DNA of 64,000 nucleotides, from assembly GCA_947258515.1 (NCBI GenBank), contig CAMYIO010000013.1:760-64759 (forward strand). The letters are read 5' to 3'. A program made the translations under genes and the position numbers. Under the pieces are notes generated by a model. The model saw nothing but the letters and a program-made list of their open reading frames with translations. It had not been told where the DNA came from and made no database searches. Shown piece after piece: positions 11,931-13,335 of the stretch. Every line of letters starts with the position of its first letter. Position 1 is the stretch's first letter. Origin of the DNA: an uncultured Ectothiorhodospiraceae bacterium (GTDB taxonomy: Bacteria; Pseudomonadota; Gammaproteobacteria; UBA9214).

Positions 11931-13335
11931 TTATGCCTCTGGCCGCATGTGCGGAAACAGTAATACATCCCTAATCGAAGGAGAATCGGTAAACAGCATC
12001 ACCAGGCGATCGATACCAATCCCCTCGCCCGCGGTTGGCGGCATACCATGCTCCAGGGCGCGAATATAATCGGCATCGTAATGCATCGCCTCGAGATCCC
12101 CGGCATCCTTGTCGGCGACCTGCTGCCGGAAACGCTCGGCCTGGATCATTGTCATTGCGCCGCGCCAGTGGCGACACCTCGGTGGGATAGGCGGTAATAA
12201 AGGTCGGGTCATCCAGTCGCGCCTCTACCGTCTTTTCGAATATTTCGATCTGCAGCTTGCCCAGTCCGTAACCGGCTTTCACGGCAACCCCGAGATTGTT
12301 CGCGACGACCTTTGCTCTCTCCAGGTCATCGATATCGGCCGCCGTGAGCTCCGGGTTATATTGCAGGATGGCATCATGCACCGTGATGCGTCGAAAGGGC
12401 TTGCCAAAATCATACTGACTGCCCTGGTACTCGAGGGTGGTGGTACCGTGTAATTGTTCCGCCATGCCCCGCAACAGGTCCTCGGTCAGGTCCATCAGGT
12501 CATGGTAATCTGCGTAGGCCTGGTAAAACTCCAGCATGGTGAATTCCGGGTTATGCCGTGTCGACAGGCCCTCGTTACGAAAATTGCGATTAATCTCGTA
12601 GACCTTTTCATAACCACCGACGACCAGCCTTTTTAAATACAATTCCGGGGCGATGCGTAAAAACAGGTCCATCTCCAGGGTATTGTGGTAGGTCGTAAAC
12701 GGTCGTGCCGTGGCCCCGCCGGGAATCGCCTGCATCATGGGCGTCTCGACTTCCAGGTAATCAAGACGGTTCAGGTACTCGCGTATGTACTGCACTATAC
12801 GGCTGCGCATGCGAAAGGTATTGCGCGACACATCATTCATGATGAGATCGACGTAGCGTTGCCGGTAGCGTATTTCCTGATCGGCCAGGCCGTGAAACTT
12901 TTCCGGCAAGGGCCGCAGCGACTTCGTCAATATGCGAATCGATTCAACACGCACTGACAACTCACCGGTTTTGGTTTTGAACAGCTCGCCCTCGGCACCA
13001 ATGATGTCTCCCATATCCCAGCCCTTGAACGCCTGGTAGACACCGTCGGGTAATGAGTCACGCTGCAGAAACAGCTGGATGCGACCGGACATATCCTGCA
13101 GTTGTGCAAAACTGGCCTTGCCCATGACACGCTTGGCCATCATGCGGCCGGCTACCTTCACCCGGATCGGGTTGGCCTCCAGTACGTCATTCTCCTTGTC
13201 GTCATACTCGGCATGCAACTCGCCGGCCACCGAATTACGGCGAAAATCATTGGGGAAGGCATTGCCCTCCGCACGCAGTGCATCCAGCTTGGCACGCCGC
13301 TGCGCAATGAGTGAGTTTTCGTCCTGTTCTTTCAT
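11931..13335 (-). pseudogene. lysS: lysine--tRNA ligase (class II) with internal ~82-nt out-of-frame deletion
   Basis: The N-terminal 409 aa read in ORF 11971..13335. The C-terminal 75 aa are in another frame (ORF 11931..12212). Junction near 12160-12175. Confidence 0.8.

Follow-up and report, generated by a model that had tools for sequence, protein, structure and literature searches.

An 83-nt out-of-frame gap splits lysS in a draft contig from an uncultured gammaproteobacterium

Lysyl-tRNA synthetase (LysRS) is essential, and a single class II lysS gene is the norm in Gammaproteobacteria. What, then, is to be made of a contig on which lysS is split across two reading frames and lacks part of its active site? 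In the 64-kb stretch of DNA analyzed here (the window), lysS lies on the minus strand: codons 1-398 of a class II LysRS are found at 13335..12142, and the gene then passes into the +1 frame, with codons 426-495 at 12143..11934 and a TAA stop at 11933..11931. Both parts are open, each in its own frame. The 5' part (12142..13335) encodes the anticodon-binding OB domain followed by the catalytic core up to and including motifs 1 and 2, and the 3' part (11931..12143) includes motif 3. Two open reading frames cover the locus. In the first, ORF A (13335..11971, minus strand, 454 aa), the match to LysRS ends at a proline codon, CCA, at 12144..12142, and is followed by an out-of-frame tail of 56 nonsense codons and a stop (11971..12141) that ends in ...RFSFD; the 3' part of lysS is untranslated within this frame. 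In the second, ORF B (12212..11931), LysRS resumes at a glutamine codon, CAG, at 12143..12141, reads QAERFRQQV..., and ends in ...FPHMRPEA.

Domain and homology searches gave the same picture. The OB-fold profile PF01336 is complete in ORF A (1-75 of 75, E = 1.5e-16), while the class II synthetase profile PF00152 is divided, with positions 1-213 of 308 in ORF A and 243-307 of 308 in the last 70 codons of ORF B. Positions 214-242 are missing from both, and the class II core is thus not complete in any one frame. By tblastn, residues 1-398 of the nearest full-length homologue (P0001) matched 13335..12142 at 93.7% identity and residues 426-495 matched 12143..11934 at 98.6%, and residues 399-425 had no match anywhere in the 64-kb window. 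An earlier, sequence-only reading of this DNA had proposed an internal out-of-frame deletion of a 27-residue active-site block, with LysRS continuing in another frame at 11931..12212; Pfam, tblastn and the DNA alignments described below all bear this out, including the displacement of motif 3 from the main frame. The last collinear block before the break, ARRNDNDP, lies at 12165..12142 and not near 12170 as that reading had placed it.

To size the lesion, the window was aligned with four orthologous loci at 90-97% nucleotide identity. Three of these (L081-L083, ~90% identity) were retrieved by exact-protein look-up, and the fourth (L084, contig Ga0316198_10010212) was the best of 13 contigs recovered by a pattern scan of metagenomes. 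The alignments show a single gap in the window lysS of exactly 83 nt, instead of the ~82 nt first estimated, corresponding to 27 residues equivalent to E. coli LysS 408-434. Across the site, all four relatives read AATGATCC, then the intervening segment, then GAAGACCAGG, whereas the window reads GATCCAGG. In L084, AATGAT is followed by the segment that is missing from the window, which runs from CCCTTTGTTACC to GCGGAAGA, and then by CCAGGCCGAG. The junction, GAT|CC|AGG (12142..12145, minus strand), is ambiguous within CC (12144-12143), and this dinucleotide is all that the two breakpoints share, the right-hand breakpoint in the relatives being GAAGACC|AGG.

These breakpoints do not fit the deletion between short GATC(C/A) repeats that had been suggested for this junction. 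In the relatives the right breakpoint carries GACC and not GATC, and a GATC-mediated event would have taken out 84 nt, kept the frame and left GATCAGG rather than GATCCAGG. Moreover, no direct repeat at a spacing of ~83 nt was found in L084, no k-mer of at least 15 nt from 12090-12200 occurs a second time within the window, the interval holds no Ns, and no stable hairpin was predicted in the segment (DNA fold z = 0.02). Slippage driven by a repeat or hairpin was rejected on these grounds, since the flanking repeats are absent and z is 0.02, and a test for repeat-based assembly collapse likewise found neither flanking repeats of several nt nor a misleading k-mer. The missing block has not been relocated within the window, where tblastn and blastn-short returned no match to it. 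A junction with 2 nt of microhomology is equally typical of a true deletion by illegitimate recombination.

The deleted residues align with residues 408-434 of E. coli LysS (1bbu), on strands that, going by the LysU and LysS structures, presumably carry E414 and E421 (Mg2+/ATP) together with N424, F426 and E428 (lysine pocket). By this alignment the block that binds Mg2+/ATP and lysine is missing from the window gene. Among 40 aligned relatives the block exists in just four near-identical variants. Furthermore, 83 nt is not a whole number of codons, and motif 3 (GxGxGxDR) therefore drops out of the product as well, being encoded solely in the +1 frame 3' of the junction and out of frame with the rest of the gene. 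The predicted product therefore has the OB domain and part of the catalytic core, and then ends in 56 nonsense residues. From what is known of the family, we infer that such a protein could neither charge tRNA-Lys nor act as a LysRS, which makes the window lysS a predicted null allele of a normally essential gene.

One explanation would spare the organism this loss, namely that the gene encodes a natural, functional short LysRS, or that programmed recoding (a +1 frameshift or bypass) yields a working enzyme. Two observations speak for recoding: in the +1 frame the 3' part of lysS has stayed open and its conservation is perfect, and the neighboring gene, prfB, itself uses programmed +1 frameshifting. 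prfB (RF2; 13450..14548, minus strand; Pfam PCRF and RF-1) lies directly upstream of lysS and is intact. It starts at an ATG at 14548 and runs for 25 codons to a site with a Shine-Dalgarno-like AGGGGG at 14485-14480 and CTT TGA C at 14476-14470, from which the long open reading frame continues at 14472; this is natural recoding and not an error. The two genes are alike in that one protein is spread over two consecutive frames. However, no residues are lost in prfB, which has its AGGGGG and CUU UGA C signal, while the lysS junction (GAT CCA GGC) has no slippery or stimulatory signal comparable to it, is unique to this record, and comes with the loss of 27 essential residues. A +1 shift would still leave these active-site residues missing, and they are near-invariant from the close relatives to E. 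coli.

Nor does any relative carry the junction or naturally lack the segment, a possibility that had been named in advance as one that would overturn the reading of a lesion. None of the best 120 homologues lacks the block, nor do any of the 13 contigs from metagenomes or a set of 19 cluster members and top hits. The best 120 database matches are all 494-502 aa long, and the block is kept almost without variation in 40 aligned homologues and is present in 13 of 13 metagenome contigs. In a database of 5.8 billion clusters, no other protein carries either the junction or the out-of-frame tail, and the matches obtained were ordinary LysRS fragments; the sole partial match to the tail (P0137) carries a different, unrelated frameshift. 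A natural short form in the relatives was rejected on this basis, and both a short form and programmed recoding are effectively excluded.

Of the relatives, L084 comes from another metagenome and has an intact lysS. This contig is collinear with window positions 9400-14649 at ~97% nucleotide identity, with no large length difference between the two other than the 83 nt; the three other gaps are small (5 nt in total) and fall outside coding sequence by their coordinates. Within lysS, nucleotide identity is 96.4% in the 5' part and 99.1% in the 3' part. At the protein level, the window LysS outside the block is 94.4% identical to the nearest full-length homologue and 97.9% identical to the LysS of L084 (P0121), from which it differs at 10 of 468 positions. 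lysS is orthologous and the prfB-lysS order is shared with the relatives, and the neighboring genes are alike in L081, L082 and L084. All close relatives come from metagenomes or metagenome-assembled genomes (MAGs), marine-sediment samples included, and the best match among GTDB representatives is a Thiotrichales MAG at 75% protein identity.

There are also minor differences in this neighborhood. A small gene for a DUF502 membrane protein lies between lysS and mltD in the window (11186..11815, minus strand), in L082 and in L084; L081, ~90% identical, has no such gene, and there mltD directly follows lysS. In L081 (ena:ERZ25039514:contig_1450), prfB at 4683..5600 was called as two pieces of 181 aa (PCRF) and 96 aa (RF-1), which is more breakage than one programmed frameshift would account for; this hints at indel errors in the L081 assembly, which may be a long-read one.

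The state of the two lysS halves bears on the age of the lesion. At 339 columns that are invariant in 40 relatives, the window LysS departs only once, and conservatively (L for I). Compared with L084, the lysS codons show 33 synonymous and 10 non-synonymous differences, and the 3' fragment by itself shows 2 synonymous and none non-synonymous. The 33 versus 10 codon differences indicate that lysS in L084 is under purifying selection. A long-standing pseudogene was rejected, as the window gene has no additional frameshifts or stops and no excess of non-synonymous changes, and it keeps all invariant sites bar one. Because the two halves are undecayed and the conspecific gene is intact, the lesion postdates nearly all of the divergence from L084, and the deletion, if real, would on this comparison be extremely recent. 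The suggestion, implicit in the sequence-only reading, of an organism living without LysRS is not supported, given an intact gene in a 97% identical contig and a broken copy that has not decayed.

We next considered whether the window is of poor quality overall. On Pfam scanning, some 50 other genes look full length, and a generally error-prone assembly was rejected accordingly. They include recJ, prfB, mltD, hom and the rpoS-nlpD-pcm-surE-truD-ispF-ispD cluster; eno, pyrG, tilS, accA, dnaE, rpsB and glnD, among others; and lpxB, lpxA, fabZ, lpxD, skp, bamA, rseP, dxr, cdsA and uppS. For frr, pyrH and tsf the assessment came instead from exact-protein look-ups, together with the family names that the hits carried. 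recJ, upstream of prfB (14824..16563, minus strand, the start being that of a mechanical open reading frame), has its DHH, DHHA1 and RecJ_OB domains, so that recJ and prfB are indeed intact as first described, prfB with its normal frameshift site. Overlaps between open reading frames in the window are merely mechanical extensions.

With its surroundings in order, the gap could be a real, recent and tolerated deletion, with a second LysRS (a lysU-like class II enzyme or a class I LysK) encoded elsewhere and lysS now a pseudogene. Some bacteria have two LysRS genes, such as lysS and lysU of E. coli. The deletion is present in the deposited sequence, its 2-nt microhomology comes with no repeat that would explain a collapse by the assembler, and the assembly is otherwise clean, all of which count for this account. 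Against it, tblastn found no second LysRS gene in the 64-kb window, in agreement with the initial view that lysS is the sole LysRS there, and no copy of the missing block either. In addition, a 97% identical conspecific keeps lysS intact and under purifying selection, neither half of the gene is damaged further, a single class II lysS is, as a matter of general knowledge, usual in Gammaproteobacteria, and two rare events would be required together. We consider a tolerated deletion unlikely. The stronger claim, that the deletion is genuine and fixed in an uncultured marine-sediment gammaproteobacterium in which another enzyme (a further class II copy, say, or a class I LysK gained by horizontal transfer) replaces LysS, appears very improbable. 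If genuine and fixed, it would be an aminoacyl-tRNA synthetase replacement caught as it happens; were reads to prove the deletion real and fixed, it would amount to a very recent loss of an essential synthetase and would imply a backup LysRS, of which there is no sign here.

The lesion belongs to the deposited record, since the 454-aa truncated LysS, along with eight other proteins of the window, is present in a collection of 15 billion proteins, where NCBI is the only source and all of them come from a single 96,746-nt contig. For the same reason, the window was judged not to have been edited synthetically. The record is an unannotated, contig-level draft and is probably metagenome-derived, its source being most likely a metagenome-assembled (or single-cell) genome of an uncultured gammaproteobacterium. 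At 90% clustering, the truncated LysS (cluster P0135) is filed under a seemingly unrelated 57-aa representative (P0136, MKTHHALVLKQS...); this assignment appears to be a clustering oddity, and one that hides the truncated LysS from searches at the level of representatives.

In a further account, the deletion is real but belongs to a non-viable or minority allele that was taken as the consensus, for example a defective copy in a polyploid cell or DNA from dead cells in sediment, the working allele being intact. Logan contigs of 1 kb from runs ERR11443729 and ERR11443730 match the pyrH-frr region at 99.7-99.9% nucleotide identity, and none spans lysS. At least two runs thus contain the same population (99.7-99.9%), in short contigs whose coverage is probably low, and at low coverage a few reads set the consensus; the intact version, moreover, is seen in the conspecific contig L084. 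Yet there is no direct sign of mixed alleles, and assemblers normally keep the majority path. The intact 495-aa protein rebuilt with the exact window sequence was also not found in the protein collection. Taken together, these points leave a minority allele a rather unlikely source of the gap.

The account we favor, as probably correct, is that the gap is a local artefact of assembly or library preparation, on the basis of biological implausibility and the comparative evidence. The consensus could have taken up a wrongly joined contig end, or a read or template that was chimeric or had lost the segment, and the deletion would then not represent the working state of lysS in the organism. An artefact or a very recent event is indicated because L084 is intact, LysRS is essential, the two halves are undecayed and the record is a draft. 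Counted against an artefact are the absence of a repeat (the usual cause of collapse), of a hairpin and of Ns, and the clean state of the rest of the 64 kb.

Comparison with known systems places the locus within familiar categories. The window gene resembles the class II LysS and LysU of E. coli (PDB 1BBU, 1LYL/1E1O) in whole-length orthology (E = 5.8e-214 for the intact conspecific protein), in its OB domain and class II core, and in the prfB-lysS order; it differs in that the equivalent of residues 408-434 is gone and the remainder, motif 3 included, is out of frame. EpmA (PoxA/GenX), the naturally truncated LysRS paralogue that lysylates EF-P, is likewise LysRS-derived without being a full LysRS. 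EpmA lacks the N-terminal OB anticodon-binding domain and has a complete catalytic core, whereas in the window gene the OB domain is present and it is the core that has a hole, in what is otherwise an orthologue of full-length LysS at 94-98% identity. Another parallel lies in the frameshifted or incomplete essential genes of drafts and MAGs (annotated 'pseudo; frameshifted' by NCBI PGAP), which share with this locus a single disrupted housekeeping gene, a syntenic intact record, intact close relatives and, in the window lysS, no decay. Such cases are, however, mostly indels of 1-2 nt, often in homopolymers, while the window shows a loss of 83 nt that no repeat explains. The finding is nothing new in kind, whether it is an everyday draft-assembly lesion or a commonplace young pseudogene, and its main value is as quality control and a warning for annotation. 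Completeness estimates, metabolic reconstructions and surveys of aminoacyl-tRNA synthetases that draw on this draft would mis-score LysRS as absent or pseudogenised.

Several further features were observed in the window. One other locus is damaged, a 5'-truncated group II intron beside a pspA fragment (381-1344, minus strand). The intron open reading frame (469..1344, 291 aa) matches profile positions 112-204 of 205 of RVT_1, its C-terminal half, as well as the maturase domain GIIM, and intron domain V/VI (RF00029) was detected at 381..453 with 36.9 bits (E = 4.6e-5), just short of the gathering score of 40. Immediately upstream of the intron reading frame, a different frame (1065..1223) encodes a 52-aa fragment, MIQEMEDTLVEVRS..., which we take to be residues ~32-84 of PspA/IM30; the two gene fragments abut. 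A truncated intron next to a gene fragment is a common type of genomic scar. Downstream of recJ, a 348-aa open reading frame (16538..17584, minus strand) has a weak, sub-threshold PhosphMutase match (19.9 bits, cut-off 21.5). No Pfam match was obtained for two other open reading frames, 2308..3408 (366 aa) and 56009..56845 (278 aa); the second of these may not be a gene, since glnD, on the opposite strand, overlaps it with its extended start. The sole Rfam match in the window at the gathering threshold is a t44 RNA (RF00127, 60.8 bits) at 55788..55904 on the minus strand; the rpsB open reading frame (54809..55918) reaches into it only through mechanical extension at the 5' end, and the RNA therefore lies just upstream of the real rpsB.
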